DNA from: Chthoniobacteraceae bacterium
GTDB taxonomy: Bacteria; Verrucomicrobiota; Verrucomicrobiia; Chthoniobacterales; Chthoniobacteraceae
Direction: 5' to 3'
Assembly (NCBI GenBank): GCA_031409655.1
Contig: JANNXQ010000295.1
Location: 1 to 18,261, forward strand
Length of the DNA: 18,261 bases
Below are positions 1 to 15,458 of this stretch, in pieces (the stretch's first letter is position 1; every line of letters starts with the position of its first letter). The notes beneath the pieces were generated by a model that saw only the letters and a program-made list of their open reading frames with translations, was not told the origin of the DNA and did no database searches. The translations under genes were made by a program, and so were the position numbers.

Positions 1-105
1 GGATGGCGCGCTCCGCCGCGCCATGCCCAACGCGCGCCGCAGGCCCATCTTCCCAGTATGGCGCTGCGCGCAGATGTTCTCATGGGGCGACGGAGCGCGC
101 CATCC
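1..105. repeat. REP/REPIN-like imperfect inverted repeat, left arm truncated by the window edge
   Basis: 1-25 GGATGGCGCGCTCCGCCGCGCCATG versus the reverse complement of 81-105, GGATGGCGCGCTCCGTCGCCCCATG (23/25 match). Lies just downstream of the kinase stop. Confidence 0.75.
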
Positions 106-120
106 ACCGAGCGCCGGGAG

Positions 121-140
121 GTTTTTCAACAGTCTGCTAG
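121..140. mobile_element. Possible terminal inverted repeat of an IS5/IS1182-type element or derived MITE, followed by CTAG
   Basis: GTTTTTCAACAGTCTG-CTAG resembles the TTTTTCAACAGnCTG ends of such elements (it reads FFNSLL). CTAG overlaps the kinase stop codon. The other end is not in the window. Confidence 0.35.
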
Positions 141-1150
141 CCGCGAACCCCGTAGCGCTCGCCGAGCGCGAGGCATTGCGTGAGCGAGCGCAAGCCGCCG
201 GTGCAGGTCTCGTCGCTCAGATTTGCGGCGGCGGCGCAGACTCCGGAGCGCAGGGCTTCGTCGATGGGACAGGCTTCGTGCCAGCCGAGGAGGACGCCGG
301 CGGTGAAGGCGTCGCCGGCTCCGGCGGCGCCTTTGATGTAGTCGGCGGGGAGCTGCACGCTGCCGTGTTCGTGCCACTGGCCGTCGGTGCCGAGGGCGCA
401 GCCGCCTTCAGGGAAGTGGACGAAGACGCGTTCGCGGATGCCGGCGGCGAGCATTTGCTGCATGGCGGTGCGCAGGGCGGCGCGGTCGAGGTGCTCGCCG
501 TCGCGGATTTTCAGGCCGGTGACGCGCCCGGCTTCGAATTCATTCATGATGCAGACATCGACGAACTTCAGCGCGGGCAGGACGATCCGGGCGAAGCGCT
601 CGCTGTCTTCGCTGACGACGTCGATGGAGGTCTTGAGGCCGGCGGCTTGCGCGCGGGCGAGCACTTCGGCGGCGACGGTGCCGTGGGTCGCGCTCGGGCT
701 ATCGAGGCGATCGAGCAGGAGCAGGTAGCCGAGATGAAAGAGGCGGGCGTCGGTGGCGGTAAAATCGAAGTGCGGGGAGTCGAGCAGCGCATTGGCGCCG
801 CGGGCGTGGAAAAAGGTGCGGCGGCCGGTGCTCTGCACGGTCATCACGTCGGTGTAGCTGGTCGGCGCGGAGTCGGTGTATTTCAGCGCGGCGGTGCCGA
901 TGTTCAGCCTGGCGCAGCGTTCGACGATCCAGCGTCCATTTTCATCCGCACCCACCAGCCCGGCGGCATCGAGCGGAAAGTCCGCGCCCAGGAGCGCGAG
1001 ATCAGCGAGCACATTGAAAGGGGAGCCACCGGTGCCTTTGGCCTCGGAGAGGATATTGGCGAGGGCGTCCTGCTGCGGCCAAGTGTCGATGATCTTGACG
1101 GCATCGACGATCCAGTTGCCGCCAGCGAGAATTCCTTTGCGTGTGCTCAT
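137..1150 (-). CDS. PfkB/ribokinase-family carbohydrate kinase
   Basis: GTGGSPFN, GLVGADENG, MNEFEA and C-terminal GAAGAGDAFTAG signature. ATG at 1150 (MSTRKGILAGGNW) preferred over the 1192 ORF start. Confidence 0.93.
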   Translation of the reverse strand: MSTRKGILAGGNWIVDAVKIIDTWPQQDALANILSEAKGTGGSPFNVLADLALLGADFPLDAAGLVGADENGRWIVERCARLNIGTAALKYTDSAPTSYTDVMTVQSTGRRTFFHARGANALLDSPHFDFTATDARLFHLGYLLLLDRLDSPSATHGTVAAEVLARAQAAGLKTSIDVVSEDSERFARIVLPALKFVDVCIMNEFEAGRVTGLKIRDGEHLDRAALRTAMQQMLAAGIRERVFVHFPEGGCALGTDGQWHEHGSVQLPADYIKGAAGAGDAFTAGVLLGWHEACPIDEALRSGVCAAAANLSDETCTGGLRSLTQCLALGERYGVRG

Positions 1151-1208
1151 AGTGTGGGAAGGGGCGGAAGGAGAGCCAGAAGCCGTGGGCAAGTGAAGGG
1201 GAAAAGTG

Positions 1209-1352
1209 CCGGGAGCGCCGCCTGGGAGCGTCGCCGTCTCGTGCGGCAGTCGTGATCCTTCGCGCGGAGCGCCATACTACATAGATGTGGCGCTGCGCGC
1301 GCTGGGGAGGATTGCCGCCCGGGACGGCGGCGCTCCCGGACGGCGCTCCCGG
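1209..1352. repeat. ~144-nt imperfect hairpin (REPIN/MITE-like or structured RNA) between divergent genes
   Basis: 1209-1251 matches the reverse complement of 1310-1352 at 37/43. Inner stem 1261-1276 pairs with 1286-1301. Confidence 0.85.
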
Positions 1353-1400
1353 GAATAATCCGCATTCGCTGCCGTCTCTCTCCCGTGCGAAAGAACGCCG

Positions 1401-2192
1401 ATGACTGACCCTGAACCAAACCGCCGCTATGCCGTGATCCTCCCGGCGTGCAATGAGGAGCCGTGCATCGGGCAAGTGCTTGCGGAATTACGCGCGGTGC
1501 TGCCGGCGGCGCAGTTTGCGATCGCGGTGGGGGTGAATGGCTCGACGGATCGCACGGCGGAGATGGCGCGCGAATCCGGTGCGGTGGTCGCGGAGACGGC
1601 GGCGCGCGGGTATGGCCATGGGTGCCAGGCGGCCATTGATCTTCTCGAGCACGAGTTTCCGCCTTTCGATGGCTACATCTTTGTCGCCGCCGACGGCGCG
1701 AATGATCCGCGCGACATCCCTCGTCTCGTGGCCGAGCACCGGCGCGGGGCGGCATTAGTCCTCGGGTGCCGCACGCGGACGCCGGGAAATTGGTTGCCGA
1801 CGCAGTTTCACTACGTCGTCGCGAATCGCTTTTTCGGCGCGCTCTGCGGCCTGCTCACGGGCCGTCCGTTTGCCGATCTCGGCCCCTTGCGGCTCATCGA
1901 CCGCGAACTTTTCCGCGCGCTGGCGCTGCGCGAATGGACCTACGGCTGGACGATCGAGGCGCAGATCCGCGCGGTGCGACTCGGCGCGCGGATCGTCGAG
2001 ATCCCGGTGCGCGAGCGGGGCCGGATCGCGGGTGAGCAGAAGGTCTCGCACGTCTCGTGGCGACACACCCTCGCCGTCGCGGCGAAGATCGTGGCGGCGG
2101 GTTTCCGCGCGCGCTTGGTGAGCTATCCGGCTCGGGCGAAAACCCTGCCAGAGGCCGCGGAGATTCCGACCCGCGCCCGCGCCGCGCTCTGA
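1401..2192 (+). CDS. Glycosyltransferase family 2 (DPM-synthase-like)
   Basis: ILPACNEE, NGSTDRT, GYGHGC, ADLGPLRLI, YGWTIEAQ and EIPVRERGRIAGEQKVS motifs typical of DPM1-like GT2 enzymes. Confidence 0.9.
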   Translation: MTDPEPNRRYAVILPACNEEPCIGQVLAELRAVLPAAQFAIAVGVNGSTDRTAEMARESGAVVAETAARGYGHGCQAAIDLLEHEFPPFDGYIFVAADGANDPRDIPRLVAEHRRGAALVLGCRTRTPGNWLPTQFHYVVANRFFGALCGLLTGRPFADLGPLRLIDRELFRALALREWTYGWTIEAQIRAVRLGARIVEIPVRERGRIAGEQKVSHVSWRHTLAVAAKIVAAGFRARLVSYPARAKTLPEAAEIPTRARAAL

Positions 2193-2271
2193 GCCTATTC
2201 AGAGTTCGCGGAACCTCGGCGCGCCGAGAAATCCGTGGCGCTTGAAATCATCGTGTGTTATCGCCGCGTGC

Positions 2272-3024
2272 ATGCGTTTCTCCTTGCTCTTCGCTCTCCT
2301 TTCGCTGGTTTCGACGTCTGGAATTTTCGCCGCGGAGGAGCCGGTGGTGCCGGAAGTGGATGGCATCATGCTGCCGCGCCATCGGGCCAATCTGAGCGTC
2401 GCCATCGAGGCGCGGGTGCGGGAAGTATGGGCCGAAGAAGGGCAGACGGTGCGCAAGGGCGATGTGCTCGCGGTGCTCTACACGGAGGCCGAGGAGCTGG
2501 AGTGCAATCGCGCCGAGGCGCAGATCAAAAAGGCTGACTTCAACTATCAATCAAAGCTGCGCCTGAAGAAGCATGACGGCATCGCGGAACTCGAAGTCGT
2601 CGGTGCCGAAGCGGATCTCGAGATGGCGCGGATCGAACTCGCCCGCGCGCAGGCAAATCTTCGCGACAAGACGCTCACCGCGCCGTGGGATGGTCGCATC
2701 CTGCGCGTCGGGAAAAGCACCGGCGAGACGGTGAATCGCGCGGAGAAAGTGATCGAGCTCATCGACTACTCGACGATCTACGTGGACGTGTATCTCGATG
2801 CGAAATTTCTCCGCGGCGTGAAGCCCGGACAGAAAGCAGAGGTGAGCGGCGAAGCGATCGGGGCGGTGCCGAAGCTGGCGCACGTCTTCATCGTCGATCC
2901 GGTGATCGAGCCGGGCAGCGGGCTCAGTCGCGTGCGCCTGCAGATGGACAATGCCGACCTGCGCATCCCGACGGGATTGCCGGTGCGGGTGAAATTTGAA
3001 CCCGTGGGTCTGGCGTTTCGGTGA
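2272..3024 (+). CDS. Efflux RND/HlyD-type periplasmic adaptor (membrane fusion protein) with signal peptide
   Basis: Signal peptide MRFSLLFALLSLVSTSGIFAA; lipoyl-like halves VREVWAEEGQTVRKGDVLAVL and LTAPWDGRIL flanking a helical hairpin; beta-barrel end IVDPVIEPGSG...IPTGLPVRV. Confidence 0.9.
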   Translation: MRFSLLFALLSLVSTSGIFAAEEPVVPEVDGIMLPRHRANLSVAIEARVREVWAEEGQTVRKGDVLAVLYTEAEELECNRAEAQIKKADFNYQSKLRLKKHDGIAELEVVGAEADLEMARIELARAQANLRDKTLTAPWDGRILRVGKSTGETVNRAEKVIELIDYSTIYVDVYLDAKFLRGVKPGQKAEVSGEAIGAVPKLAHVFIVDPVIEPGSGLSRVRLQMDNADLRIPTGLPVRVKFEPVGLAFR

Positions 3025-3072
3025 TCGCGAATTGGGAGACAAAAGCGCACCGCTCATCCGTGCTCGCACTGA

Positions 3073-4746
3073 ATGAACATCGAAAAGCTCCGCCAGATCT
3101 GGGACGACCACGCGCGGGCCGTCTATGCCTTCCTCCTGAAGCTGACGCGCAGCGAGCCGGATGCCCGCGACTTTCTCCAGGACATCTTCCACCGACTGGC
3201 GAAACAGCCTGACCTGATCGCGAATCTGAACGGTGCGGCGCGGCCCTATCTACTGCGTTTTGCGCGCAATGTAGTCGTGGATCAGGCCCGGCGGAATCAA
3301 GTGCGGGACCGCATCCTCGGTTCCATCGAGGCCCAGCGCCGCCACGAATATGCACCCGCCGAAGATCCCGATGCCGCGCTGCTCCGCGGGTCACTGGCGC
3401 GGGGTCTGGCGCAGCTCCCCGAAGGCCAGCGCGAGGTCGTGCATGCACGGTTGTGGCAAGGGCACACCTTCGACGAAATCGCGCGGGAATCCGGCCTCAG
3501 CATCAACACCGTCGCGAGCCGCTATCGCTACGGCGTAGACAAAATGCGCGAGCAACTTCGTGAACTTTACGAAGACCTCACACCGCAGGCTTCGCCACAA
3601 ACCAAATTCAAGATGAAAGACAATACTGACCGACCGCTGCGAAATCTGAACTCCGAGGAACCCCTCATTCAGCCGCTGGAACAGCGCCGCGTGCCCTCCG
3701 CCACCGGCGCGGCCTTTGCGCTGCCCATTCTTCCGCTCGCCGATGATCACGACGCGCAGCACGACGTCCGGCCGGCCGCGGAGGACGGCGCGATCGACAA
3801 TGCCGAATTCGGCGACGAACTGATCCTCATCGACGACGAAGATCTGGCCTTCATCAATCTGCCGATGAACTTCGACGAAATGGCCGAGGGCATTGAGTGG
3901 GGAACAGGTGAAGATGGTGTCCCGTTTGATCCTCGGGTGCTCTGGCAGTCGGTGGCTCCGGGTGCTGAAAATCCAGCGGCGGGCGGCGCTGGCGTGGTGA
4001 CATTAAATACCCTCGGGAATAGTAGCGGCGTTTTGAGCGGCAATAGCGTTGAGCTGGATGCCGGAAGTCCGATCTTCGATAACGAGATCGAGGTGCTGGA
4101 TGAAAACGATCCGCGTATCTTCGAGTCCGCGGCAGGTGGAGATACCGGAGATCACACCGGCAATCCGGATCATGAAGGGCCAGCGAAGTACGCGGCCGAC
4201 GGGCCAGCGACTCCCGCGACTCCAGTCTCCGCGGAGACTTCCGCACCCGAGATTTCGGGCAGCGCTCCTGAAGTCAGCAGCGCCAGGACAAGCGCACCGG
4301 AGATCGTGCATCTGGACCACCTCGAATTGCATGTTGCAGGCTCGACCTCGGCGGTTTTCTCGGCGGCTCAAGATTCGACCAATGACGGATCTCGATCCGC
4401 CGAACTTCAGCATGGCGCGGACGAGAGTGCATCCGCGGATCAGGACCTTCAGTTCGCCAGTGCTCCGACACCCACCGGCGCTGCTGCTGGGACGGTCGAT
4501 CAATGGGTGCCAGTGGAGGATCAGGCGGACGACGCCGTCACGGATCTCATCACTGAGCCGCTCCTCGGACAGGTCGAAACCGGCAACGCCCCGGACACCG
4601 ATCACGCGGAAGTCACCGCCGATGCCGGCGCGCTGAGCGCGGGCTCTTCGACCAATCTGCGCCACGGCCTGATGGCCGCAGCGCTCGCTGGAACCGTCGC
4701 CATGAACCGCGACCCAAAATCCCGTCGGGAGAAGGAAGGGAACTAA
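3073..4746 (+). CDS. ECF sigma-70 factor (aa ~1-169) fused in frame to an LExR-motif leader and a long acidic low-complexity tail
   Basis: Region 2: DARDFLQDIF...YLLRFARNVVVDQARR. Region 4: LAQLPEGQREVVHARLWQGHTFDEIARESGLSINTVASRYRYGVDKMR. No stop before the ~390-aa extension, which contains IQPLEQRRVPSA and is D/E/A/S/T/G-rich. Confidence 0.88.
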   Translation: MNIEKLRQIWDDHARAVYAFLLKLTRSEPDARDFLQDIFHRLAKQPDLIANLNGAARPYLLRFARNVVVDQARRNQVRDRILGSIEAQRRHEYAPAEDPDAALLRGSLARGLAQLPEGQREVVHARLWQGHTFDEIARESGLSINTVASRYRYGVDKMREQLRELYEDLTPQASPQTKFKMKDNTDRPLRNLNSEEPLIQPLEQRRVPSATGAAFALPILPLADDHDAQHDVRPAAEDGAIDNAEFGDELILIDDEDLAFINLPMNFDEMAEGIEWGTGEDGVPFDPRVLWQSVAPGAENPAAGGAGVVTLNTLGNSSGVLSGNSVELDAGSPIFDNEIEVLDENDPRIFESAAGGDTGDHTGNPDHEGPAKYAADGPATPATPVSAETSAPEISGSAPEVSSARTSAPEIVHLDHLELHVAGSTSAVFSAAQDSTNDGSRSAELQHGADESASADQDLQFASAPTPTGAAAGTVDQWVPVEDQADDAVTDLITEPLLGQVETGNAPDTDHAEVTADAGALSAGSSTNLRHGLMAAALAGTVAMNRDPKSRREKEGN

Positions 4747-4836
4747 GCGCCTTCCCCCGACACCGACAGGGAGCGGGAGTTGTCCAGAAAATGGGCGACT
4801 CCCGTTTCCGCGTTTCATCCGCCAGTTTATTCACCC

Positions 4837-6645
4837 ATGTCCACCCTCCCCAGTTCTGCCGCTGCTCGATTGAGTAAAGGTGAGATCTCGCCTGGCTTCG
4901 ACGTGCCGGCGGAATGGCTGCGGCTCGCGCTGCACGCGGGTGAACCGGAGTTCTTTCCGCGTCTCCTCGACTTGCTCCGCGCCCAGAGCGGCGCGGCCAG
5001 CGGTGGCTTGTGGCTGCTGGCGCGGACGGCGCGTGGCCACGGGCTCTCCGAAAAGGCATCGAGCGGTCTGCCGGCGCGCAATGCCGAGTGGAATCAATGG
5101 TTGCGGGAGCGGATGCAGGAGTTGATCGCCGAGCGGCAGCCAAAGATGGTCCCCGCCGGGCCGGGCACCGGAGCCGCCCTCGGGATGCTGCTGCCGCTGG
5201 TCTGGGATGGGGCGGGCCTCGGCGTCGCCTGGCTCGGGGATGCTGCGCTGGTGCCCGCGGCGGGCCGGCGTCTCGCGATGCTCGCGGGTTGGGCCACGCG
5301 GCTGCATCTGCAGCGACCGGCAGGTGCCGCTGCCACTTTGGATCACGCCTGCTCCGAGGCGCTGCTGGCCAACGCGCATTCCGCGGATTGGCCGACCATC
5401 CTCACTGCGCATCTGCGGCGGCAGAGTGGGGCGCGATCCGCCGCGCTCTTCCGCGAAGAGAGCGGTGGCTGGCGACTCGTGGCGGATTCCAATGCCGGCG
5501 AAATCCAACGGCGCAGCGCCGGTTCCCGCGCGCTGGAGCAGAAGATGGCGCGCCTCCTCGCCGCGCCCGATTTTCTCGCCGCGAAGACGAGCACGGACAA
5601 GGCGCTCGCCTTCCGCGTGGACAAGGCGGACGACTGGGGGCTGCTCCTCGATTTTGAGGGAGGGCACGCGGCGAATGAAGCGCAGGTCCGCAAAGGTCTT
5701 GCCGGCGTGCTTCAGATCGCCGCGCGCGTGCTGCCGCAGTTCGGCGCCACGGGCTGGCGCGTTTCGGTCGCGCGCAGTTTGCTCCGGCGTTCGCGTCTCG
5801 TCTCACCGCGCGGCAGTCGCTGGGTGCTCGCCACGATCGCCGTCCTCGCCGTCGGCGCGATGTTCATCCCAGTCACCGAGACCTTCGACGGCGATTGCGA
5901 ATTGCAACCCATGCAGCGTTTCACCGTGGCGGCGGAAGTGGAAGGCCGCATCCGCAGCGTGCCCGTGGCGGAAGGGGCGGTGGTCAAGGCCGGGCAGGCG
6001 ATCGTCGAACTCGACGCGACCACTTTGCAGACGCGCCTGGAAGTGGCCCGCGAGCAGCGTCAGGAACAGGAGGCGCAGGCGCGACGTTTCCAGGGCCAGC
6101 AGGACATGACGGGCTACCGCCTCGCGCGGATCAAGGCCGAGCAAGCCGGGCAGGAAGAGGCGGCGCTGCTCGAAGATATCCGCCACTGCACCATCGTCGC
6201 GCCGATCGATGGACGAGTGCTCACCAAGGATCTCCCGCAGAAGCTCGGGACGGTGCTGCATCCCGGCGACACGGTCTGCGAGATCGGCGGGCTCGATGGC
6301 TGGAACGTGCAGATCGCCCTGCCGGAGGAAGATCTCGAATCCTTCCTCGGCGCACTCGCGCGGCGCAGCCAACTGCCCGTCGCCTATCGGCTGAAAGCCG
6401 GCTCCACCTTTGCGCTCGCCGCCGCCGTCGAGGCGCCGCGCCAGGTGAGCGAGATGGCGTATCCAGTAGCCGGGCGGAATGTGGTCTTCATCACAGTGCC
6501 TGCCGTCGGGTTGCCCCCGGAGTTGTCGCGTGATCTGCGGCCCGGCTTTTCCGGGCGCGCAAAAATCGACGGCGAGACGCAGCCTTGGGGCCGCACGCTT
6601 TCGCGGCGTTTTGTGCAATACCTCCGGCTCCACTGGTGGCTATGA
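4837..6645 (+). CDS. HlyD-family membrane fusion protein with a long N-terminal cytoplasmic, GAF-like region
   Basis: Single TM WVLATIAVLAVGAMFIPV, then VAAEVEGRIRSVPVAEGAVVKAGQAIVELD, coiled coil, IVAPIDGRVL, LRPGFSGRAKI and terminal YLRLHWWL. The GAF-like call is by eye only. ATG 4837 preferred over 4780. Confidence 0.85.
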   Translation: MSTLPSSAAARLSKGEISPGFDVPAEWLRLALHAGEPEFFPRLLDLLRAQSGAASGGLWLLARTARGHGLSEKASSGLPARNAEWNQWLRERMQELIAERQPKMVPAGPGTGAALGMLLPLVWDGAGLGVAWLGDAALVPAAGRRLAMLAGWATRLHLQRPAGAAATLDHACSEALLANAHSADWPTILTAHLRRQSGARSAALFREESGGWRLVADSNAGEIQRRSAGSRALEQKMARLLAAPDFLAAKTSTDKALAFRVDKADDWGLLLDFEGGHAANEAQVRKGLAGVLQIAARVLPQFGATGWRVSVARSLLRRSRLVSPRGSRWVLATIAVLAVGAMFIPVTETFDGDCELQPMQRFTVAAEVEGRIRSVPVAEGAVVKAGQAIVELDATTLQTRLEVAREQRQEQEAQARRFQGQQDMTGYRLARIKAEQAGQEEAALLEDIRHCTIVAPIDGRVLTKDLPQKLGTVLHPGDTVCEIGGLDGWNVQIALPEEDLESFLGALARRSQLPVAYRLKAGSTFALAAAVEAPRQVSEMAYPVAGRNVVFITVPAVGLPPELSRDLRPGFSGRAKIDGETQPWGRTLSRRFVQYLRLHWWL

Positions 6646-8804
6646 GCGTGCTCGGCGAGAGCGCGAGTGGCTCGGGCGAAAAGCGCATCGGACCCGCGCT
6701 GCGCCGCGATCTCGAAGTCTCGCACCAGCGCCGCGATGGCCTCGATCGCGCGGTGATCAAAGACCCGCTGACGCTGCGCTTTTTCGAGATGGGCTCGGAG
6801 GACTATCAACTCGCCACCCGCATCAATCTTGGCGCCACCGCCCGCGAGATCGCCGCGACCTGGCGCCGTGAACTGCCCGCACTTTGCCGGGCCCGCGGCG
6901 ACGTGGAACTCGAACGGCGCGCGGTGCGCCTCTGCTCGGAACTGCGCCATCTCGGACTCTGCGAATCGCCCGCGCAGACGAACTCAACGTCGGTGCGGAT
7001 GAAGTGGAGCGCGTGGTTCGTGCGGCTGGCGCGGCGGATCAGCGCACCGCTCTTCCTGCGCTTCCGGATGGGCGATCCGGATGCGTTTCTCGAAGTCGTC
7101 GTCCGCGCGCTGCGTCCGCTTTTTTCCCGCACGGCCTGTGGAGTCGCGGCGCTCTTCGTCGCGGTCACGCTCGTCGCGGCCATCGCCCATGCTGGCGAGA
7201 TGGAGATGCACACGGAGTGGTTCCTCGTCTGGCAGCACGCGCTCGCGCTCTACCTCGGCATCCTCGCGCTGAAGGTCATCCATGAAGCGGGCCACGCGCT
7301 CGTCTGTAAAGCGCTCGGCGGCCAGGTGCCGGAAGTCGGCGCGCAGTTGCTCGCCTTTCATCCCACGTTTTTTGTCGATGTCTCCGATACTTGGATGTGG
7401 CCGCAGCGCCGCCGTCGGATCGCGGTGGCGGCGGCCGGTTTCGGTGCGGAGATGATCGTCGCCGCGCTGCTCTTCTGGCTCTGGTGCCTGCTCGCGCCGG
7501 GGTTTGCGCGCGACCTTTGTTTGAATCTCATGTTTGTCGCCAGCGTCAGCGCGGTCTTCTTCAATGCGAATCCGCTGATGCGCTACGACGGCTACCACAT
7601 CCTCGCCGATCTCTGGCGGGAACCGCATCTGCGGAAGCACGCGTTTGCCACGCTCACGGATGCTCTGCGCCGCGTGATCTTCGGCAGTCGCCTCGTGCCG
7701 CGCGCCGTCACGCCACGGCGCGGCCGACTCATGCTCTACGCCATCGCGAGCACGGTGTACCTCGTCTGGATCGTCTGTGCGGTGGCTGGTTTTCTGGAGC
7801 GCGCGCTCGCTCCGCTCGGGCTTGAGGGCGCGGGTAAAGTGCTCATCGCGGCGTGGCTCATCGGGATGCTCGTGCCGATCGTTGGCTTCTTCCGCACCTT
7901 GCTCGTGGATCTTCTGCGGCTCGACGCCGCGCGGCGCCCGCGTCCGCTTTTCGCCGCGGCGGCGGTGGTCGTCCTGCTCGGGGCTGCGGCCTTTGTGCCG
8001 GTGCCCATCCGCGTCGAGCGCGCGTGCGTCGTCGCCGTGCCGTCCACGGGAGTGCTGCGAGCCTCCGAGCCCGGCGTGGTGGTCGAGATGCTGGTGCGGG
8101 AAGGGGAGCGCGTGCAGCGCGGCCAGCATCTGGCAGGGATCGAAAACCGCAGTCTCACGCTCGCGCAGGACCGGACCGCGCTCGAAGTCGGCCAGACGAG
8201 GATCGCGCTCTTTTCCGCTGCCGGGGAAAGTCGCGCCGTCGAAGTCGAGCAGCACTTGCGACACTTTAACAAAGCGCGTGCGAACTCCGAGCAGGCGGCG
8301 CGGCGCACGGAATCGCTGCTCCTCACCAGCCCTTGCGACGGCCTCGTGCTCACGCGGCAGACCGAGCGCCGGCAAGGTCAGCGCGTGCGCGCGGGCGACG
8401 AAGTGCTGAGCATCGGCGGCCCGGAACTGCGCGAGTGCCTGCTCCCCCTGAGCGAAAAGGAAGCGCGCCGGATTCACGAAGGCGCGGTGCTCGCGCTGCG
8501 TCTCCGCGCCGCGCCCGGCACCACTTACTCAGGCCGGATCAGCGCCCCGCCTTTGCGGATCAAAGGCGACGACCTCCCCCCCGCACTCACCGCGCTGGCC
8601 GGTGGGGAGATCGCCGTGGATGCGACGGGCAAAGTCTTTTCCTCCGAAGTCACCCACGTCGCGCGCTTCACCATCGAGACCGCGGAAATGCTGGCCCGGC
8701 CAGGCTCGACGGGCCGGGTGCGGCTCGACTGCGGGCAGCAAAGCGCGTGGCGGTGGCTACTCGAGACGGCGCTCGATGCGATCCATCTCGACCATCGCGT
8801 GTGA
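6642..8804 (+). CDS. Site-2 (M50) metalloprotease fused to a C-terminal HlyD-type adaptor domain, with a PqqD/RRE-like N-terminus
   Basis: HEAGH at 7281-7295, NPLMRYDG at 7569-7592, several TM helices, then GVVVEMLVREGERVQRGQHLAGI and LTSPCDGLVL. ATGA overlap with the upstream stop (6642-6645). Confidence 0.9.
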   Translation: MSVLGESASGSGEKRIGPALRRDLEVSHQRRDGLDRAVIKDPLTLRFFEMGSEDYQLATRINLGATAREIAATWRRELPALCRARGDVELERRAVRLCSELRHLGLCESPAQTNSTSVRMKWSAWFVRLARRISAPLFLRFRMGDPDAFLEVVVRALRPLFSRTACGVAALFVAVTLVAAIAHAGEMEMHTEWFLVWQHALALYLGILALKVIHEAGHALVCKALGGQVPEVGAQLLAFHPTFFVDVSDTWMWPQRRRRIAVAAAGFGAEMIVAALLFWLWCLLAPGFARDLCLNLMFVASVSAVFFNANPLMRYDGYHILADLWREPHLRKHAFATLTDALRRVIFGSRLVPRAVTPRRGRLMLYAIASTVYLVWIVCAVAGFLERALAPLGLEGAGKVLIAAWLIGMLVPIVGFFRTLLVDLLRLDAARRPRPLFAAAAVVVLLGAAAFVPVPIRVERACVVAVPSTGVLRASEPGVVVEMLVREGERVQRGQHLAGIENRSLTLAQDRTALEVGQTRIALFSAAGESRAVEVEQHLRHFNKARANSEQAARRTESLLLTSPCDGLVLTRQTERRQGQRVRAGDEVLSIGGPELRECLLPLSEKEARRIHEGAVLALRLRAAPGTTYSGRISAPPLRIKGDDLPPALTALAGGEIAVDATGKVFSSEVTHVARFTIETAEMLARPGSTGRVRLDCGQQSAWRWLLETALDAIHLDHRV

Positions 8805-10547
8805 GGCCAGCGGCGGCTGCACGAGGTCGTAGATTTCGCCCCACTCACCGACGGCGATGAGCCGCGACTCTTGTTTCCACGGCTGCTCGGAGTCGGGATA
8901 GTGCTCGATCTCGCGCGGGCCGAAGAAGACGTAACGGACCTCGAGGGCCTTGGCTTCGGCGCGCCACGAGGGTGCGCCGTTCATGAGCGCTTCGAGCTTT
9001 GGCTCGGCGGCCTGATACGGGAGTCCGTGGCTCCAGAGGTGGCCGGGGTAGCCGAGGGCCAGCTTGCGACCGGCGAGGAGGAGCGGGTGATTGTAAGTGG
9101 GGTAGCCGGCGAAGCGCAGTTCGGGGCGGAGATTGCGGACGGCTTGCTGCACGCCGTCGAGTTCCGAGCGGCGGGCGATCTCGTAGCCGGTGTGGGTGGC
9201 ATCGAGGCCGCCGAGCAGCGAGGCAAAGCCCGACCAGAAGAGCACAAAGCAGGTGACGAGGCGGGCGGGGAACGACCAGCGCGCGATGAGTGCCTCCCAC
9301 AGAAAAGGCAGCACCGCGAGATACGACCAGAGCATGATCTTGGTGTTGTCCCATTCCCACGGCGCGAACTTCACGAAGCAGCAGAGGAGGAAAATTCCGA
9401 GTGCTGGAACGACAAAGGCGCGAGCCGCTACGTCGCGCCGAATGCGCCAGCACAGGATGGCGAGAAGCACGGGCAGGATGCCAAAATTCACCGGCCAGAA
9501 AAGGAGCGCGGCGTTCGTGGTCGGCGGACCAGGCACGTGCGCGGCGCACCATTCCACCCACGGCGCGTCGTCCCACATCCAGCCCGCTTTCCAACCGATG
9601 ACGGAGGCGCCGCGCAGCATGCCGGTGACGAGCAGCGTGAGCGCGGTGGCGGGTGCAAAGGCAGCACCGACAAGCCCGGCGAGCCCGCGCCGCGCCGCGG
9701 GAATGAGTGCGAACCAAGTGGCGAGGAGGAGAGAGAGGAAAAAAAAGGTGTGCAGATGAAAGATCGGGAGCGACGCGTAGAGCAGCCATTCGCCGAGCCA
9801 GGGCAGACGATCGCGCACGTCGCCGCCGAAGTAGCGGCTGCGCCAACTCGTGAGCAGGAGGAGGCCGGCCGGTAGCGCGAAGAGCAGCCCGCGCTGCGTG
9901 ACCAGCAGCGCGAGTGGCAGACTTTTCCACGCGAGCTCCGTCTGAAAATCCGCGAACTCGCCGGTGGCGAAAAAGACGAAGCCCATGAGCCCGCCATTGG
10001 CGAGGAAGCCGAGGAGCGCAAAGCCGCGGCCCCAGCGCCAGAGCGCCGCGCCAGTGAGCGCCGCGCCGAGCAGCCCGACCCACACGAGGCCGCGCAGGGC
10101 ATCGACGCCGGCGAGGAGGAGCAGCGCATTGAGGAGATCGACACCGACGGGATAGACGAGCGGGCCGCCGCTGAAGATCGGATTCTCCGGCCAGAAAGGC
10201 ACGCCGCTCGCGAGATGGCGGATGTAGGTGAGGTGCAGGGAGAGGTCGCCGAGATTATTCGGCGAGAGCACGGCGATGACGTCGCCATCAGTGACGACGA
10301 GCCAGAGGAAAGCCCGCAGCGTGAAGAGCGTGAAGAGAACGATCGCGCCCCACTCCCAGGCGTCTGGCCGAGCGGAAGGGGAGCTGCGTTTCCAGCGCGT
10401 GCCGAGCGTGAGGAGCTTCACGAAGACACCGGCGGCGAGCGCGGCCCAGGCGAGTACGGGGCGGAGTCCGCCGGAGGCGAAGGCCAGCGCGAGGCCCGAG
10501 AGGACGCTCGTGGCCACGCCGTAGAGGAGTGAAGCGGCGAGTCTCAT
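8757..10547 (-). CDS. Polytopic membrane protein, putative GT-C-fold glycosyltransferase-like
   Basis: Many TM segments; loop NNLGDLSLHL...FWPENPIFSGGPLVYP; WEWDNTK; soluble C-terminal domain. ATGA-coupled to the upstream gene at 10544-10547. Confidence 0.75.
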   Translation of the reverse strand: MRLAASLLYGVATSVLSGLALAFASGGLRPVLAWAALAAGVFVKLLTLGTRWKRSSPSARPDAWEWGAIVLFTLFTLRAFLWLVVTDGDVIAVLSPNNLGDLSLHLTYIRHLASGVPFWPENPIFSGGPLVYPVGVDLLNALLLLAGVDALRGLVWVGLLGAALTGAALWRWGRGFALLGFLANGGLMGFVFFATGEFADFQTELAWKSLPLALLVTQRGLLFALPAGLLLLTSWRSRYFGGDVRDRLPWLGEWLLYASLPIFHLHTFFFLSLLLATWFALIPAARRGLAGLVGAAFAPATALTLLVTGMLRGASVIGWKAGWMWDDAPWVEWCAAHVPGPPTTNAALLFWPVNFGILPVLLAILCWRIRRDVAARAFVVPALGIFLLCCFVKFAPWEWDNTKIMLWSYLAVLPFLWEALIARWSFPARLVTCFVLFWSGFASLLGGLDATHTGYEIARRSELDGVQQAVRNLRPELRFAGYPTYNHPLLLAGRKLALGYPGHLWSHGLPYQAAEPKLEALMNGAPSWRAEAKALEVRYVFFGPREIEHYPDSEQPWKQESRLIAVGEWGEIYDLVQPPLASHAMVEMDRIERRLE

Positions 10548-12040
10548 GGCGCGGCGGGCGCGGGCGTGAATTCCGGAGTGCGGCCTGGAAATTGATCGCG
10601 AAATTCCGCGACGCGCAGATAGAGCAGCGCGGTCCCGTCCGACTGGCCGCGGAGGCGCAGCGGTTCGAAAAAGTAGGTGTGGCGCAGCAGCGGCTCGATC
10701 GTTTCCTGGAGCTGTTCGTCGATCAGCAAAAACGCGGCGTCGAGGGATTCGGGGAGTGCGTCGAAGTCTAAAAATACGACGTGTGGGTAGTCGCCGAGCA
10801 GCCAGGGCAGGGGATGGGTGTCGGCCATGACCACGTGACCGAGGAGATGACGCGCCACAGAATCGCGCGCGACGAGCGTCCGCAACGGCGTGAGCACTTT
10901 CTCGATGTCCGGCAGCGTCTGCACATAGACGTAGGGCTCGGTTTCATCGGTGAATTTGCGGAAGTTGAGTTGCAGCGCGAGGGCGAGGGAGACGGCGAGC
11001 GCGGGCCCTGCAATGAGCCATGGAAACCAGCCATCCACGCGCCGCGCGGCCCGCAGGACGGTGTAGCCAAAGAGCAGGTGCAGCGGCCACGCGAGCGCGA
11101 TGAGACACCAGGGCGTTTTGTAGGCGATCGCGGAATAGACGGCCAAGGTGGCGAGGCTCATGACGGCGAGGCCGCGGGCGATGAGATTCGTGCCGCGCCA
11201 GGAGATGCGCAGCGTGACGATGAGACCGAGGAGCGCGGGCCATTCGTAACGGCCGAGCAACGACAGCCAATACCACCAATCCTTCTCGTGCCCGCTCTCG
11301 CCTTTCGTGCCAGTGGCCAGCCATGGGGCGAAGGTGCGCCAGAGACCAGGGACGGATTCCCAATTCAAAAACCCGCCGGAGTAGAAGAAGACGATGAGCC
11401 CTGCGCACACCGCGGCGACAGCGCCGAGATCGCCCACTTTCCACTGCTGCCCGGCCACCCGCGCGCGACCTCCGCTCCACCAAACGACGGCCGCGGCTCC
11501 GCCCAGCGCGAAGAGATGCACGACGTAGGTTTCTTTCGTCAGCACGGCACCGGTGATCCCGAGCCCGGTCGCCCAGAGATGCGTCGTCGCCCCTCTTGAC
11601 CACAAGCCCGCGAGCCCCCAAGTCGCGAGCATCAGGAAAAAGACAAACGCGGATTCGTGGATCGCGTAGCGTCCATAGAAAGAGAACGCTGGCGAGATCG
11701 CCATGGCCAAGGCCGCGAGCAGACACGCGCCGATGCCGAGGTGGCGGCGGAAGGCCAGCATCATCCCGACGCTCGCCGTGCTGAAGAGTACCAGCGGCAT
11801 CCGCAGCGCCCAGAGGCTCCGGCCGAAGAGCGTTTGCGAGACGAAGAGGATGTAGAAATGGAGCGGCCCGTGGAAGTTCGTCGGGTCGTAGGCGTTGTAG
11901 CCCTGATGCGTCATCGCATCCACGAAGGCCCCGTTCACGCCTTCGTCGAAATGCGCTGGCTTCAGGTCCAGCCAGGCGACGCGCAACGCGAAAGCGAGCG
12001 CGATAATCGCGAAGGCGAGCAGGCGGGAACGGAAAGACAT
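10544..12040 (-). CDS. TIGR03663/Agl23-like GT-C (GT39/PMT-like) membrane glycosyltransferase
   Basis: LDLKPAHFDEGVN (DE motif in the first loop), YDPTNFHGPLHFY, FYGRYAIHES, LTKET, GHEKDWWYW, YKTPW; multiple TM helices. Confidence 0.82.
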   Translation of the reverse strand: MSFRSRLLAFAIIALAFALRVAWLDLKPAHFDEGVNGAFVDAMTHQGYNAYDPTNFHGPLHFYILFVSQTLFGRSLWALRMPLVLFSTASVGMMLAFRRHLGIGACLLAALAMAISPAFSFYGRYAIHESAFVFFLMLATWGLAGLWSRGATTHLWATGLGITGAVLTKETYVVHLFALGGAAAVVWWSGGRARVAGQQWKVGDLGAVAAVCAGLIVFFYSGGFLNWESVPGLWRTFAPWLATGTKGESGHEKDWWYWLSLLGRYEWPALLGLIVTLRISWRGTNLIARGLAVMSLATLAVYSAIAYKTPWCLIALAWPLHLLFGYTVLRAARRVDGWFPWLIAGPALAVSLALALQLNFRKFTDETEPYVYVQTLPDIEKVLTPLRTLVARDSVARHLLGHVVMADTHPLPWLLGDYPHVVFLDFDALPESLDAAFLLIDEQLQETIEPLLRHTYFFEPLRLRGQSDGTALLYLRVAEFRDQFPGRTPEFTPAPAAP

Positions 12041-12049
12041 TCCACGAAC

Positions 12050-12146
12050 TTATGAATGATGATTGATGATTGGTGAATGACGAACGGCACCGGATTCCGC
12101 TGATCCTCACGGAAATTCAAAACCAAAAATCCAGCCTCCAAAATTC
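12050..12146. repeat. Two degenerate heptamer tandem arrays in a divergent intergenic region
   Basis: TTATGAA TGATGAT TGATGAT TGGTGAA TGACGAA (12050-12084) and AATTCAA AACCAAA AATCCAG CCTCCAA AATTC (12114-12146). Confidence 0.6.
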
Positions 12147-12155
12147 TCCCCGCGA

Positions 12156-12893
12156 ATGGCCCCGGCTCTCTCCATTGTCATCCCCGCCTACGGCGAGGCG
12201 CGGCGACTGCCCGCCACGCTGGCGAAACTCGCTGCGTATGTGAGCGCCTCGACACCGGTGGTGGAGGTGCTGATCGTGGTGGAGCGCAGTCCGGATGCGA
12301 CGTTGACCCTGGCGCGTGAATTTACTGCCGGACGGCGGGGCTTCGAAGTGATCGACAATGGGCCGCAGCGCGGAAAGGGGCACGCGGTGCGCGCCGGGAT
12401 GCTGCGGGCGCGCGGGGCGCAGATCTTCTACCTGGATGCCGATCTCAGCGTGCCGCTCGCCGAGATCGCACCTTTCCTCCTGCATCTGGAAAGGAACCCG
12501 CAAACGTCCGTGCTCATCGGTGATCGGCAGCATCCGCGGAGCCGGATCACGCGGCGTCAATCCTGGCTCCGCGAGCGCATGGGCCAGACTTTCAATCGCG
12601 TACTGCAACGCCTCTCCCTGGTGCCGTGGAAGGACACGCAGTGCGGCTTCAAGGCCTTCCGCCACGACGCCGCCCGCGAGATTTTCTCCCGGCAAAAACT
12701 CGACGGCTTTGCCTTTGATGTGGAGGTGCTCCTGCTGGCGACGCAGCTCGGGTACCAGATCGAAGCGCTGCCGGTGGAGTGGATCAATTCCGCGGAGAGC
12801 AAGGTCCGCATCGTCCGCGACAGCCTGCGCATGTTGCGCGATGCGCTGCGGATGCGGAGAGTTTTCGCGCGAGCAACGCTGCGGATCGCGTAA
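12156..12893 (+). CDS. Dolichyl/polyprenyl-phosphate glycosyltransferase (Alg5-like GT2)
   Basis: LSIVIPAYGEARRLP, GKGHAVRAGM, YLDADLS, DTQCGFKAF, FAFDVEVL, LPVEW, SKVRIVRDSLRM. Confidence 0.92.
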   Translation: MAPALSIVIPAYGEARRLPATLAKLAAYVSASTPVVEVLIVVERSPDATLTLAREFTAGRRGFEVIDNGPQRGKGHAVRAGMLRARGAQIFYLDADLSVPLAEIAPFLLHLERNPQTSVLIGDRQHPRSRITRRQSWLRERMGQTFNRVLQRLSLVPWKDTQCGFKAFRHDAAREIFSRQKLDGFAFDVEVLLLATQLGYQIEALPVEWINSAESKVRIVRDSLRMLRDALRMRRVFARATLRIA

Positions 12894-12911
12894 TCCCAGG
12901 GTCATTCCGGG

Positions 12912-12949
12912 ATAGGAAATAGCCCGGGCGAGACAAAGCTCGCCCGGGC
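12912..12949 (-). terminator. Intrinsic terminator hairpin between convergent genes, possibly bidirectional
   Basis: Perfect 11-bp stem GCCCGGGCGAG (12922-12932) / CTCGCCCGGGC (12939-12949) with a 6-nt loop, followed on the minus strand by TATTTCCTAT. Confidence 0.75.
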
Positions 12950-12974
12950 CTTCCCCCCGAAAAGGTGCGCTAGT

Positions 12975-14186
12975 TTAGAAGATACCGGGAATACCGATCT
13001 GCTTGCTTGTCTTCTTCAAGTTACCGCTGGCGTCGTAGATGTAGATGTCCACGGTGCAGGTTCTCCGCGCACCGGGTTGAACGTTTGACGGCTCGGTGAG
13101 CGGGAGATCCTTCACCGAGATGATCGTGCGCCCCCTGGCATCCGTGCCGCCCGTTTGCAGGATGTATGTTCCTGCCTCGTCCCCTTCTTCCGGCTCGCTG
13201 GAGATCGGCAGCATCTCCACGTCATCCACGGCGATGCGGATCCTCAAGGGGCTGGCCTCATCGCTGAGGGTGTTTGGTGGCAGGTCGGTGATGACGCTAT
13301 TGAAGCTGACCTTACCGTCGCGATTTTCATCCAAGTTCGGCACGTCGGCTGCCACCAGCGGATTCGCCGTATCCGCCCGCCCAATGAGCACGGCGGAGTT
13401 AAGATCCACGATGGTGAGGTTGCCGCGTTTCTCAGAGCCCAACCGCTTTTTCGTGTTCGCGATCTGCCCCGCAGCGTATGCGGACCGGAAGCCTGTTGCC
13501 GTCCCGAAGGCCACGGTCACATTCACGGGCCGGTTGGCAAATTTCCTCACGCCGCCCTTCTCCTCATCGAAGCTTCCCTCGGTCACGAGATCGTCCAGCG
13601 GCACGATCGACGCGAGTTCGGCGGCCTGCGCATTGGCGAGGGCGAGCCGGACGGTGAGCGTGCTGGAGGTCCACGAGAAGATCACCGAGCCGACGGTGCG
13701 GATGCGCGGTTCCCCTTCCGGCTTCGCGGGCGGGAAGGTTCCGAGCAACGCGTAGCGGGCGGACTTCCCCAGCAAGTCGAGCTTGGTCGCGTCCTCGAGG
13801 GCGGCACTGAATTCAAAGCCCCCGACGTTCAACTCGACTTCCATGTCCGGGGCAATTTCGGAGAAGTTGAACTCGACGAGATTGGCCACGATGACGGCCG
13901 TCAGTTGCTCGGCTTTTTCGTCCTTGCTGAAGCTCGGGCCCTCCTCGCTTCGCTCCACCACCAACTTCTCGCAGGAGTGCTGGGTAATGGTGATCGTTGG
14001 CTTGAAATGATTGTCCGGATCATTGGCGAGGATATTGAAGGGATCCTGCGCCGAGGCAGGAATGATGGTGGCGGCGCCGAGGGCCAGTGCGAGCAGTGGC
14101 ATCCGGGCTTGTTTTTGCGTAAGGCAGGTGGCGGCGGTGCAACCCGCACGGAACGACTGCCAGATTGTTGGAGTAATTGATTTCAT
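12975..14186 (-). CDS. Hypothetical exported, probably beta-rich protein
   Basis: Long ORF with normal composition. A-rich tract before ATG 14186; signal-peptide-like PLLALALGAATIIPASA|QD; terminator downstream. No recognisable family. Confidence 0.75.
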   Translation of the reverse strand: MKSITPTIWQSFRAGCTAATCLTQKQARMPLLALALGAATIIPASAQDPFNILANDPDNHFKPTITITQHSCEKLVVERSEEGPSFSKDEKAEQLTAVIVANLVEFNFSEIAPDMEVELNVGGFEFSAALEDATKLDLLGKSARYALLGTFPPAKPEGEPRIRTVGSVIFSWTSSTLTVRLALANAQAAELASIVPLDDLVTEGSFDEEKGGVRKFANRPVNVTVAFGTATGFRSAYAAGQIANTKKRLGSEKRGNLTIVDLNSAVLIGRADTANPLVAADVPNLDENRDGKVSFNSVITDLPPNTLSDEASPLRIRIAVDDVEMLPISSEPEEGDEAGTYILQTGGTDARGRTIISVKDLPLTEPSNVQPGARRTCTVDIYIYDASGNLKKTSKQIGIPGIF

Positions 14187-14449
14187 TTTTTGTCTGTGTT
14201 TTGTGTTTTGTTTATTCCCTGGCTTCCCACTCCGGATGACCTGAGCCAGGAAGAGAGTTGGCACTGCTGACGCAGTGCGGTGTTTTTCCGATTTCCCGGA
14301 TCCTATTACCCGGGGCCTCATCATTCATCTGCCGCTTGCCTCCTCTGTTATTTTAACGGGTAACTCGGCAGAACTTGCCGGAAATCTTTTGGAATCGAGC
14401 GACTGATGAGTTGTGGTCAATGGCCGCGCGCTCACTAACACTTCCCCCA

Positions 14450-15394
14450 ATGATCCCCACCGCTCTCCTCGCCGATCCTCTTTGCCAGCAGCATGACCCT
14501 GGGCTTGGACATCCCGAGGCGCCGGCGCGTTTTGCGGCGGTCTTGCAGAAGCTCGAGCGGGACGACATCACCGCCAAGCTGACGCGCATCGACCCGCGCG
14601 ACGCGCTGCATGAAGATCTCCGGCTCGCGCACACGCCGGCCTATCTCGAGCTTGCCGAGCGGGAGATCGCGGGCGGCGCGGATCAATTGAGCACTGGCGA
14701 CACGAGTGTGAGCCCGCGCTCGTGGGACGCGGCGCGGCGGGCTGCTGGGTCTGGACTCGCCGCGGTGGATGCGGTGCTCGGGGGAAAAGTGCAGCGCGCC
14801 TTTTGCGTGGTGCGGCCTCCGGGGCATCACGCCTCGGCGGGGAAGGGGATGGGCTTCTGCGTGGTGAACAATATCGCCATCGCCGCGCGCCATGCGCAGC
14901 GCCGACATGGGATCGCGCGCGTGCTGATCGTCGATTGGGACGTGCATCACGGCAATGGCACCCAGGACATCTTCTATCGCGACGGCAGCGTCTTCATTTT
15001 CAATACCCATCAGTCTCCGTGGTATCCCGGAACTGGGCGCGCGGATGAAACGGGGGACGGCGAAGGGCGCGGCACTACGTTGAATTGTCCGCTCCCCGCG
15101 GGCTCCGGGCGTGCGGAAGTTTTCGACGCCTTCGAGCGCCAGCTCCTGCCCGCCGTCGAAACCTTTCGCCCCGAGTTGGTCATGATCTCCGCCGGTTTCG
15201 ATTCGCGCATCGATGACCCACTCGGGCAATTCCGCCTCACGGATGAAGACTTCGCCGACCTCACGCGGATCGTCTCCGGGATCGCCGAACGCCACGCGCA
15301 TGGCCGCGTCGTCTCGCTGTTGGAAGGTGGTTACAATCTTACCGGTCTCGCCAGTGCGGCCTCCGCACATGTGCGGGCGCTGGCCGCGGTGTGA
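14450..15394 (+). CDS. Histone deacetylase family (class II-like) amidohydrolase
   Basis: GHPEAPAR, RPPGHHA, GFCVVNN, DWDVHHGNGTQ, SAGFD, LEGGY. Confidence 0.95.
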   Translation: MIPTALLADPLCQQHDPGLGHPEAPARFAAVLQKLERDDITAKLTRIDPRDALHEDLRLAHTPAYLELAEREIAGGADQLSTGDTSVSPRSWDAARRAAGSGLAAVDAVLGGKVQRAFCVVRPPGHHASAGKGMGFCVVNNIAIAARHAQRRHGIARVLIVDWDVHHGNGTQDIFYRDGSVFIFNTHQSPWYPGTGRADETGDGEGRGTTLNCPLPAGSGRAEVFDAFERQLLPAVETFRPELVMISAGFDSRIDDPLGQFRLTDEDFADLTRIVSGIAERHAHGRVVSLLEGGYNLTGLASAASAHVRALAAV

Positions 15395-15412
15395 GCGGAC
15401 CTTTCAAGGAGC

Positions 15413-15458
15413 AGGGGCGCCCTCGCCTCGAGTGGCTCATGGGGGCGAGGGCGCCCCT
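15413..15458. repeat. REP-like hairpin or terminator between convergent genes
   Basis: AGGGGCGCCCTCGCC (15413-15427) pairs perfectly with GGCGAGGGCGCCCCT (15444-15458); followed by ATTCCTT on the + strand. Confidence 0.75.

Follow-up and report, generated by a model that had tools for sequence, protein, structure and literature searches.

INTRODUCTION

Loci that combine a secondary SecA_DEAD protein with HlyD, M50, and GAF domain proteins, present also in Verrucomicrobia, have been proposed to encode a type I-like secretion machine that works without an ABC transporter (Kamneva, Poudel and Ward 2015, PMC4452313; here and below, cited papers are represented by the parts available to us). Those parts present the proposal without experiments, and no experimental follow-up of the HlyD/M50 module was found in the literature searched. 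As far as the main text of that paper was available, it mentions a sigma factor once, in a reference.

Covalent linkage of an ECF sigma factor to a regulatory segment has been described in other settings. IutY of Pseudomonas putida (ECF243) unites sigma factor and regulator in one membrane-spanning polypeptide; release involves site-2 proteolysis, with Prc and RseP taking part and a siderophore as the signal (PMC5411451, PMC8999054). Among the ECF groups with C-terminal extensions, some likewise consist of regions 2 and 4 and a long extension, with no separate anti-sigma gene, and the extensions named are SnoaL, TPR, Cys-rich, DUF1835, or transmembrane (Casas-Pastor et al. 2021, PMC7826278). 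For Planctomycetes, capture of a downstream in-frame gene by an ECF sigma factor has been proposed (PMC7671368).

Here, we analyzed a window of 18,261 nucleotides from a Chthoniobacteraceae bacterium (assembly GCA_031409655.1, contig JANNXQ010000295.1, positions 1 to 18,261 of the forward strand). It encodes an ECF sigma factor fused to an acidic tail with a divergent LExR-type leader, in a cassette of adaptor and M50-HlyD genes, and the same reading frame probably gives rise to a second, sigma-free product.

RESULTS

An ECF sigma factor continues without a stop into an acidic tail

The fusion gene extends over positions 3073..4746 (plus strand, like all features described below) and encodes 557 aa in a frame that was open throughout, as judged from the ORF, its homologues, and contigs. 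Its first part (3073..3579; aa 1-169) matched Sigma70_r2 (aa 11-76) and Sigma70_r4 (aa 112-160) above the Pfam cut-offs and passed those of PF04542, PF04545, PF08281, and TIGR02937; regions 2 and 4 alone were present, joined by a short linker. The fold of this part resembled solved ECF sigma factors, and a fold search with aa 1-300 matched sigma factors only, covering aa 1-170. Judged by these matches, it is an ECF sigma factor (sigma-70 group 4), predicted to transcribe from a cognate promoter. The tail (aa 181-557) contained 18% Asp plus Glu and was predicted to be disordered; an atlas search with it gave low recognition and unnamed clusters only.

A first-pass annotation of this DNA had described a complete ECF sigma factor running on without a stop into an acidic low-complexity tail. 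The domain matches, the 557-aa open frame, and the disorder and composition of the tail bore this out, as did a whole-protein search that returned 12 full-length fused homologues with 36-46% identity and one tail-only protein; the named relatives of the fusion were Chthoniobacteraceae. The region around positions 3560-3620, singled out there as a place where a stop or an assembly fault might hide, proved sound: contigs of three of four sequencing runs crossed the sigma-tail junction with 0 differences and 0 indels, these being assembled contigs rather than raw reads, from a single study, with two of the runs possibly the source of the window DNA. The fusion is real and conserved.

Of 401 genomes from the host's order, 13 were matched by a query consisting of the leader region only, which cannot favor fusions. 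Twelve of these matches were tails belonging to three families, all of them (12/12) in frame with a sigma factor; the remaining one, in genome G070, was a chance match inside a repeat protein. When the same leader profile was run against 1.84 billion cluster representatives (50% identity), 40 matches were obtained, comprising 33 fused proteins, 6 proteins that began at the Met of the tail, and 1 chance match, again in a repeat protein (P0046). Most of the six tail-only proteins lay on short contigs, and one has a cluster mate that starts with the end of the sigma factor. The first-pass annotation had named as a refutation that relatives always encode sigma factor and tail separately; the 33 fused representatives contradict this, although natural split forms also exist. 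A search for the fusion in 401 genomes across the phylum was positive for the host alone; five other matches at E <= 1e-35 were stop-terminated sigma factors with no cassette nearby. From the sequences searched, the fusion is old, rare, and found only in the order of the host.

The fusion is embedded in a conserved cassette

A scan of genome contigs with a single-sequence query yielded no confirmed locus and was rerun with an alignment. Counting duplicates once, 16 cassette loci were compared. The order MFP, sigma-tail, long MFP, M50-HlyD was complete in 12 of them, cut by a contig end in 3, and broken in 1, and a short MFP gene lay immediately 5' of the sigma factor in all 16. The placement of the gene between adaptor genes and upstream of an M50-HlyD fusion, noted in the first-pass annotation, therefore recurs in other genomes together with the fusion itself. 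In one genome (G233, 93% complete), the MFP gene, the fusion, and both promoter sites described below were kept and an unrelated gene came next on the same contig, which speaks against the model we favor; the long MFP and M50-HlyD genes were not found there with the queries used.

In the window, the short periplasmic adaptor (MFP) gene spans 2272..3024, with ATG at 2272 (a longer ORF begins at TTG 2242); its product has a signal-peptide-like N terminus and passed the TIGR01730 cut-off. Downstream of the fusion lies the gene for a long HlyD-domain protein of 602 aa (4837..6645), the stop of which overlaps the start of the gene for the 720-aa M50-HlyD protein (6642..8804). The N-terminal half of the long HlyD protein matched no assigned domain: no GAF domain was detected in the window copy, and among seven homologues one gave a sub-cut-off match to GAF_3 (E 0.17). 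The M50-HlyD protein comprises a putative PqqD-like domain, an M50 metalloprotease domain, and a HlyD domain. Its HExxH (7281-7295) and NPxxxxDG (within 7563-7592) motifs are intact, and M50 motifs are intact in every locus having the gene.

PqqD/RRE-type domains bind leader peptides. The N-terminal domain of M50-HlyD (6675-6983) appears PqqD-like from its resemblance to atlas clusters with PqqD on 31% and 23% of their members (scores 0.95 and 0.94); it had no Pfam or PDB sequence match for PqqD, and a PDB profile search returned designed helical repeats only. A predicted complex of this domain with the leader of the tail scored 0.52, compared to 0.02 for the best control, with at least 68% of contacts shared between runs and a partner pLDDT of at least 46; of 157 solved pairs, 116 passed the mark applied, as did 2 of 215 mismatched ones, and 18 of the 157 and both mismatches did so with scores of 0.60 or below. 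The predicted complex weakly suggests that the first domain of the M50-HlyD protein binds the leader.

Neither an OEP channel nor a SecA-like gene was present in any of the 16 loci. The host carries OEP genes and a secondary SecA elsewhere in its genome, and its contig C17 holds a complete module of the type proposed by Kamneva and colleagues. Among ten cassette-bearing relatives, one has a second, short SecA and the other nine show canonical SecA only.

Twin predicted promoter sites precede the sigma factor and the tail

A predicted autoregulatory ECF promoter, P1, was located at 3037..3062, with the -35 element AGACAA at 3037-3042, a spacer of 16 nt, and the -10 element CGTG at 3059-3062. 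It ends 10 nt 5' of the sigma start codon, which would give a near-leaderless mRNA. The consensus AGACAA-N16-CGT occurred at the same position in 8/8 group-1 loci and precedes the sigma gene in 32 of 35 unfused relatives. A second copy, P2 (3537..3562; -35 AGACAA at 3537-3542, -10 CGTG at 3559-3562), falls within the part of the frame that encodes sigma region 4. It was found in all 16 cassette loci, two of them with one mismatch, and its distance to the Met codon of the tail was 50 nt in the window and 14-83 nt across loci.

Codon usage at P2 was unusual. The codon before Asp ended in A in 13/13 distinct loci compared to 16 of 427 for the Leu/Val/Ile codons in the rest of these genes, and the Arg codon was CGT in 13/13 compared to 20 of 234; the loci in these counts are kin and not independent, yet their sigma factors are just 33-60% identical. 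Both P2-forming codons are rare in the host. Furthermore, P1 and P2 covary: the fourth -10 base was not C at 16/16 group-1 sites and was C at 14/14 group-2 sites, as well as at 32/32 P1 and 33/35 P2 sites of unfused relatives. Among the group-2 loci, 6 of 8 have their upstream site displaced to a position 5' of the MFP gene. These patterns suggest that P1 and P2 are promoters of the locus's own sigma factor, and we regard it as very probable that the sites are in use.

Genome-wide, the AGACAA/CGT consensus was not enriched: the host has 24 sites with a 16-nt spacer, no excess over other spacings, and counts in seven relatives were near control levels. A regulon beyond the locus is therefore not definable. 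A scan for sigma-70 promoters found none.

The tail has a predicted start of its own

Downstream of P2, a G-poor stretch of 20 nt is followed by an internal ATG (3593..3615; ATG at 3613-3615, Met181), the predicted second start. A Met between sigma factor and leader was present in 36/36 fused proteins, at eight different spacings. The 20 nt 5' of this linker Met contained at most three G in 14 of 15 loci, a value equally low at 7% of 16,066 internal ATGs of the host. For comparison, the 20 nt before starts of host LExR-type genes contained 1.96 G on average (n = 23), and those before internal Met codons contained 6.41. Given P2 and the start-site signature at Met181, a sigma-free tail of 377 aa (3613..4746; aa 181-557) is expected, and the locus probably makes two proteins, the sigma-tail fusion and the tail alone. 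The earlier view that the cargo of the cassette carries its own sigma factor in one polypeptide thus holds for the conserved fusion in its conserved cassette, but not as a full account: P2 and Met181 point to a sigma-free second product, and the link itself appears dispensable in at least two lineages.

The tail carries a divergent LExR-type leader and further conserved segments

By profile and matrix comparison, a leader motif of LExR type was placed at 3667..3708 (aa 199-212). It lies 18 residues after Met181, in register and within ~10-30 residues of the start Met in the tail-alone product, but not in the fusion. The tail leader had 0 matches to Pfam and NCBIfam models even at E 10, and NF012209 (LEPR-XLL) and PF07595 (Planc_extracel) missed it in a whole-genome search; the other LExR-like proteins of the host likewise fell below the cut-offs of both models. 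We compared the tail motifs with a profile of 28 LExR leaders gathered with NF012209 and PF07595. They aligned in register over 18 columns with an hhalign probability of 55 and a score of 16.5, a comparison biased towards a match by prior trimming of the alignment blocks around the motif; column shuffles scored 6.95 +/- 1.88, and 0 of 300 reached the score of the leader. On a matrix derived from 27 leaders, the window motif ranked 6th of 5,343,438 six-frame host windows, among the host's own large-protein family, the leader variant of which shares a Pro near the end. Most members of the sigma-tail family scored between -8 and 17, compared to 23 to 44 for true LExR leaders, and in many of them E and the first R of LExR are replaced. 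By these measures, the motif is of a divergent LExR type. The leader recognized in the first-pass annotation was thus upheld by profile and matrix likeness and failed with the curated LEPR-XLL and Planc_extracel models. A further 27 host ORFs fit the LExR pattern. LEPR-XLL and Planc_extracel proteins typically have a large repeat-rich body; such a body is absent from the disordered 377-aa tail, whereas most of the collected LExR leaders head frames of >1,000 aa.

No transmembrane helix was found in the tail. The best 19-residue hydropathy was 0.96 in the window tail and <=1.45 in 29 of 31 tails, whereas 165 next-gene products had a median of 1.95. A short segment around Phe267 (3823..3888; aa 251-272) is a candidate sigma-binding element on account of fold confidence and conservation. 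Modeled beside the sigma factor (39 sequences), aa 251-270 reached a pLDDT of 83-89 with surroundings under ~55, whereas the full-length model (13 sequences) gave just 56-64; the fold tool outputs no contacts, and the candidacy derives from this gain in pLDDT. The segment is clearly conserved in group 1 only, split forms included, and not clearly so in group 2. Other conserved elements are a Trp-Val-Pro motif (4504..4512; aa 478-480) and, at 4666..4743, an Ala/Gly-rich, weakly hydrophobic segment (aa 532-544) followed by a basic C terminus.

The fusion has unfused ancestors and split descendants

In unfused relatives, the gene following the sigma gene encodes a short, mostly hydrophobic-helix putative anti-sigma factor, with an ATGA overlap in 23 of 35. 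The cassette sigma factors formed one clade among these relatives (SH-aLRT 96; this and the other trees are quick trees), and the tail holds both the slot of the anti-sigma gene and its promoter. Tree and gene order place the sigma-tail protein as a descendant of this sigma/anti-sigma family. Two possible relics of the ancestral anti-sigma factor found no support in sequence. The tail leader, considered as a degenerate anti-sigma N terminus, aligned with the N-terminal domain of the partner at E values of 0.41 and 0.099 over at most 3 columns, and this reading was rejected; the Phe267 segment, considered as a relic of the anti-sigma helix, shared one aligned column with the ancestral anti-sigma N terminus.

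One locus (L002) is naturally split: here, the tail is a separate gene with an ATGA overlap, and the cassette and both promoters are kept. In addition, four sigma-only clusters that share the same end point fell at two points among the fused proteins in a quick tree. A single base in the linker separates split from fused forms. The split forms occur naturally, their tree positions mark them as derived from the fusion, and the covalent sigma-tail link is, on this sequence record, dispensable in at least two lineages.

A proposed export checkpoint and its alternatives

In the model we favor, the ancestor would have been an ECF sigma/anti-sigma operon with two self-read promoters, P1 located 5' of the sigma gene and P2 within it to drive the anti-sigma gene. 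In the clade's ancestor, the membrane anti-sigma gene would have given way to a gene for an LExR-leader protein plus two exporter genes, and the sigma stop codon would have been lost. P1 would now yield the sigma-tail protein and P2 the tail alone, with both transcripts running on into the long MFP and M50-HlyD genes. The tail would keep the sigma factor inactive, in cis and in trans, via the segment just past the leader, and the leader would be bound by the PqqD-like domain of M50-HlyD. Cleavage near the leader and/or export of the remainder would take away the inhibitory segment and free the sigma factor, which would then make more tail and more machine, the loop closing once tail outruns export. 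Since aa 251-272 lie past the leader, they would be separated from the sigma factor by cleavage close to the leader as well as by tail export, in fused and split forms alike.

The components of this model differ in strength. We consider it fairly likely that the tail is a client of the neighboring M50-HlyD machine. The whole chain, in which the tail inhibits the sigma factor and processing relieves the inhibition, is a tentative proposal that stops a little short of probable. More doubtful, if well worth entertaining, is the full reading in which the sigma factor is joined to its own secreted anti-sigma factor, M50-HlyD cleaves and exports this inhibitor, and the sigma factor reports on export; on that same, possible reading, one frame with two promoters and two starts might supply a tethered sigma factor and an excess of free inhibitor.

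Within the operon, no candidate regulator other than the tail remains, and the tail would be produced in excess, like an anti-sigma factor; beside the loci read, no conserved additional regulator was seen. This bears on a rather unlikely alternative in which the P2-derived tail is simply what is secreted, the sigma factor is active while still joined to its tail, or once trimmed unspecifically, and is under some other control, and the stop loss is tolerated history. Several observations are in keeping with it: splitting occurred at two or more points of the tree, P2 and Met181 supply the tail's own expression, PMC7671368 outlines how an in-frame downstream gene may be captured, and the sigma-tail contact is a candidate from fold confidence only. 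However, fused proteins occur in three families and in both subclades with the frame held over eight linker lengths, aa 251-270 gain fold confidence beside the sigma factor, and an autoregulated sigma factor with no inhibitor would be expected to run away. That the fusion is an assembly artefact or a recent stop loss in a single strain deserves practically no credence; although split forms exist one linker base away from fused ones, 33 of 40 cluster representatives were fused, all 12 motif-found tails were in frame, the contigs agreed, and the spread of the fusion refutes this explanation.

A loop of opposite sign to the favored model would result if the full-length protein were active and the machine exported or degraded it via the internal leader, so that the sigma factor would accumulate, and make more machine, when export is limiting. 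An internal leader could target the whole chain, and the exporter genes lie downstream of both promoters. This is nevertheless improbable, as it is impossible in the split lineages, one of which (L002) has nevertheless retained both promoters along with the cassette; a folded sigma factor ahead of the leader would also need unfolding, and no motor gene was seen in the loci. The split forms are more readily accounted for by release of the sigma factor than by its export. Release could also occur at the membrane with no export involved, with either the adaptors or the Ala/Gly segment at its C terminus retaining the tail at the inner membrane until M50 cuts on a signal, as with IutY and RseP (PMC5411451). 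The intact M50 motifs in each locus having the gene, the conserved C-terminal segment, and the lack of a channel or motor nearby agree with such a device. We give it little chance all the same: the tails have no transmembrane helix by the hydropathy values given above, three HlyD-domain proteins and an LExR-type leader indicate export, and the host has the 27 other LExR-pattern ORFs and OEP genes elsewhere.

DISCUSSION

If the full reading with a secreted anti-sigma factor is true, the locus would represent a checkpoint of the FlgM kind, assembled from unrelated components on a not-yet-demonstrated secretion pathway and existing today in both fused and split versions. Gene expression may here be coupled, in the manner of a switch, to an unstudied secretion machine, and the locus makes the proposed pathway directly testable. 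The usual neighbors of the HlyD/M50 module are giant proteins that are hard to handle, whereas this locus offers a candidate client of 377 aa and a predicted leader-binding domain. Its predicted sigma promoter is defined to the base, and a P1/P2 reporter could thus read out cleavage or export. The locus also adds a kind of ECF extension not found in the passages of PMC7826278 available to us, and it suggests that the internal promoter of a sigma/anti-sigma operon is reusable for two nested proteins from one frame.

The combination of parts was not found in the literature searched, which covered few subscription papers, or in the accessible parts of PMC7826278. In the portion of its supplement that was covered, the 10 passages that name Verrucomicrobia lack this context and the terms 'M50', 'Chthoniobacter', and 'GACAA' are absent; a matching group may lie in the rest.

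Like the module of Kamneva and colleagues, the cassette has three HlyD-domain proteins, one of them with Peptidase_M50 (PMC4452313). It differs in that 0/16 loci contain SecA_DEAD or OEP and in that an ECF sigma factor and a small disordered client lie inside the cassette. The M50-HlyD protein also recalls RiPP RRE-fused intramembrane leader peptidases (NF041824, daptide type), in that a putative PqqD-like domain precedes its M50 region; the M50 region scored 164 bits on NF041824 (cut-off 300). In contrast to those peptidases, it is fused to HlyD, the client is a disordered protein of 340-660 aa, and no tailoring enzymes were seen in the loci.

Like IutY, the fusion unites a sigma factor and a putative regulator in one polypeptide, and a site-2 protease, which takes part in the release of IutY, may act here too (PMC5411451, PMC8999054). 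Since the tail has no transmembrane helix, however, it is not an IutY-type protein; it further differs in its LExR-type leader, its own promoter and start, and the adjoining dedicated M50-HlyD gene. For the nested promoter, the closest parallel is rseA P3 in the rpoE-rseABC operon of Escherichia coli, a sigma-read promoter inside the sigma coding region that serves the downstream gene without the sigma factor (PMC8595263). There, the downstream gene encodes a separate membrane anti-sigma factor more than 230 nt away (PMC8595263), whereas here the site is followed, at a distance of 14-83 nt, by a Met that shares the frame of the sigma factor, with the result that two nested proteins may come from one frame.

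The likeness to the FlgM/sigma-28 checkpoint is one of logic, and no homology is claimed: sigma class and machine are different, and covalent fusion and a protease are involved here. FlgM itself is exported and largely unfolded. Under the favored model, both systems would have a disordered inhibitor that is removed by a secretion machine and thereby frees the sigma factor that transcribes the inhibitor (PMC6978683). Taken singly, the parts of the locus all have precedents: extensions fused to ECF sigma factors, release by a site-2 protease, a promoter nested in a sigma gene, export of an anti-sigma factor, and the HlyD/M50 module.

Distribution of the promoter consensus

The predicted nested promoter, a second copy of the AGACAA-N16-CGT consensus within sigma region 4, is, judging from sequence comparison, a trait of the entire unfused Verrucomicrobia ECF family. 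An exact nested copy was found in region 4 of 31 of the 35 unfused relatives whose peptide permits it (among loci L003, L083-L093, and L165-L210), these 35 being a selection out of 159 distinct unfused loci. In the unfused relatives, the nested copy is written in rare codons and lies immediately 5' of the putative anti-sigma gene. A paralogous ECF gene on host contig C133 has the same consensus upstream, and the nested copy is absent from it.

Elsewhere in the host, the consensus precedes a gene for a secreted beta-propeller protein (PF09826; L325, contig C273:25646, + strand), and in a relative (L283) it lies upstream of an N terminus resembling that of the host protein. The consensus at these two places may belong to the paralogous ECF of C133. 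An exact AGACAA-N16-CGTC was also located on host contig C196 (L327, C196:7406, + strand), 8 nt upstream of the start of a 2,872-aa LExR-type protein, which is the only one among the host's 27 other leader ORFs to have a site of this type.

Host leader variant

A leader variant specific to the host, of consensus IEPLExRIAPA, stands at the start of about 25 host ORFs of 270 to 2,870 aa; the curated leader models (NF012209 and PF07595) miss it. These ORFs are located on contigs C15, C100, C126, C147, C179, C188, C196, C218, C230, C235, C251, and C265 of the host genome (G000), with a tandem array of seven on C126.

Variation of the tail and of the flanking genes

Tails of group 2 (L193, L195, L197, and L200) contain one to three copies of an aromatic-rich module of ∼50 aa, possibly folded, which is not present in the window's tail. 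The tails of L001 and L199 are His rich (33 and 35 His, respectively, versus 10 in the window's tail), a possible metal-binding trait.

The window's flanking genes (137-2192 and 8757-18204) encode a PfkB kinase, glycosyltransferases, a PMT-family membrane protein, and a deacetylase. None of them recurs beside the cassette in L001, L002, L081, L082, or L094, and they look unrelated to it. Three loci carry a divergent membrane-protein gene upstream of the MFP gene (L002:2188-3351, L082:7756-8640, and L094:1446-2420, all on the - strand) that is not found in the window; its product ends in a CxxC stretch, which we take to be glutaredoxin-like. L200 (243-5088), from a relative's genome (G233), has the MFP gene, the sigma-tail fusion, and both promoter sites; the next gene, where the two exporter genes would be expected, encodes an unrelated, Asp-rich secreted protein.

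Other M50-HlyD loci

At least one additional M50-HlyD match was present in 7 of 10 relatives. A third host cassette (contig C287, 7155-12339, - strand) consists of long MFP, MFP, and M50-HlyD genes, with no cargo, channel, or motor gene seen adjoining it. Host contig C17 (L326) harbors a complete Kamneva-type locus (PMC4452313), comprising a short SecA_DEAD protein, OEP, MFP, M50-HlyD, and a 3,363-aa protein that bears an LExR-type leader.
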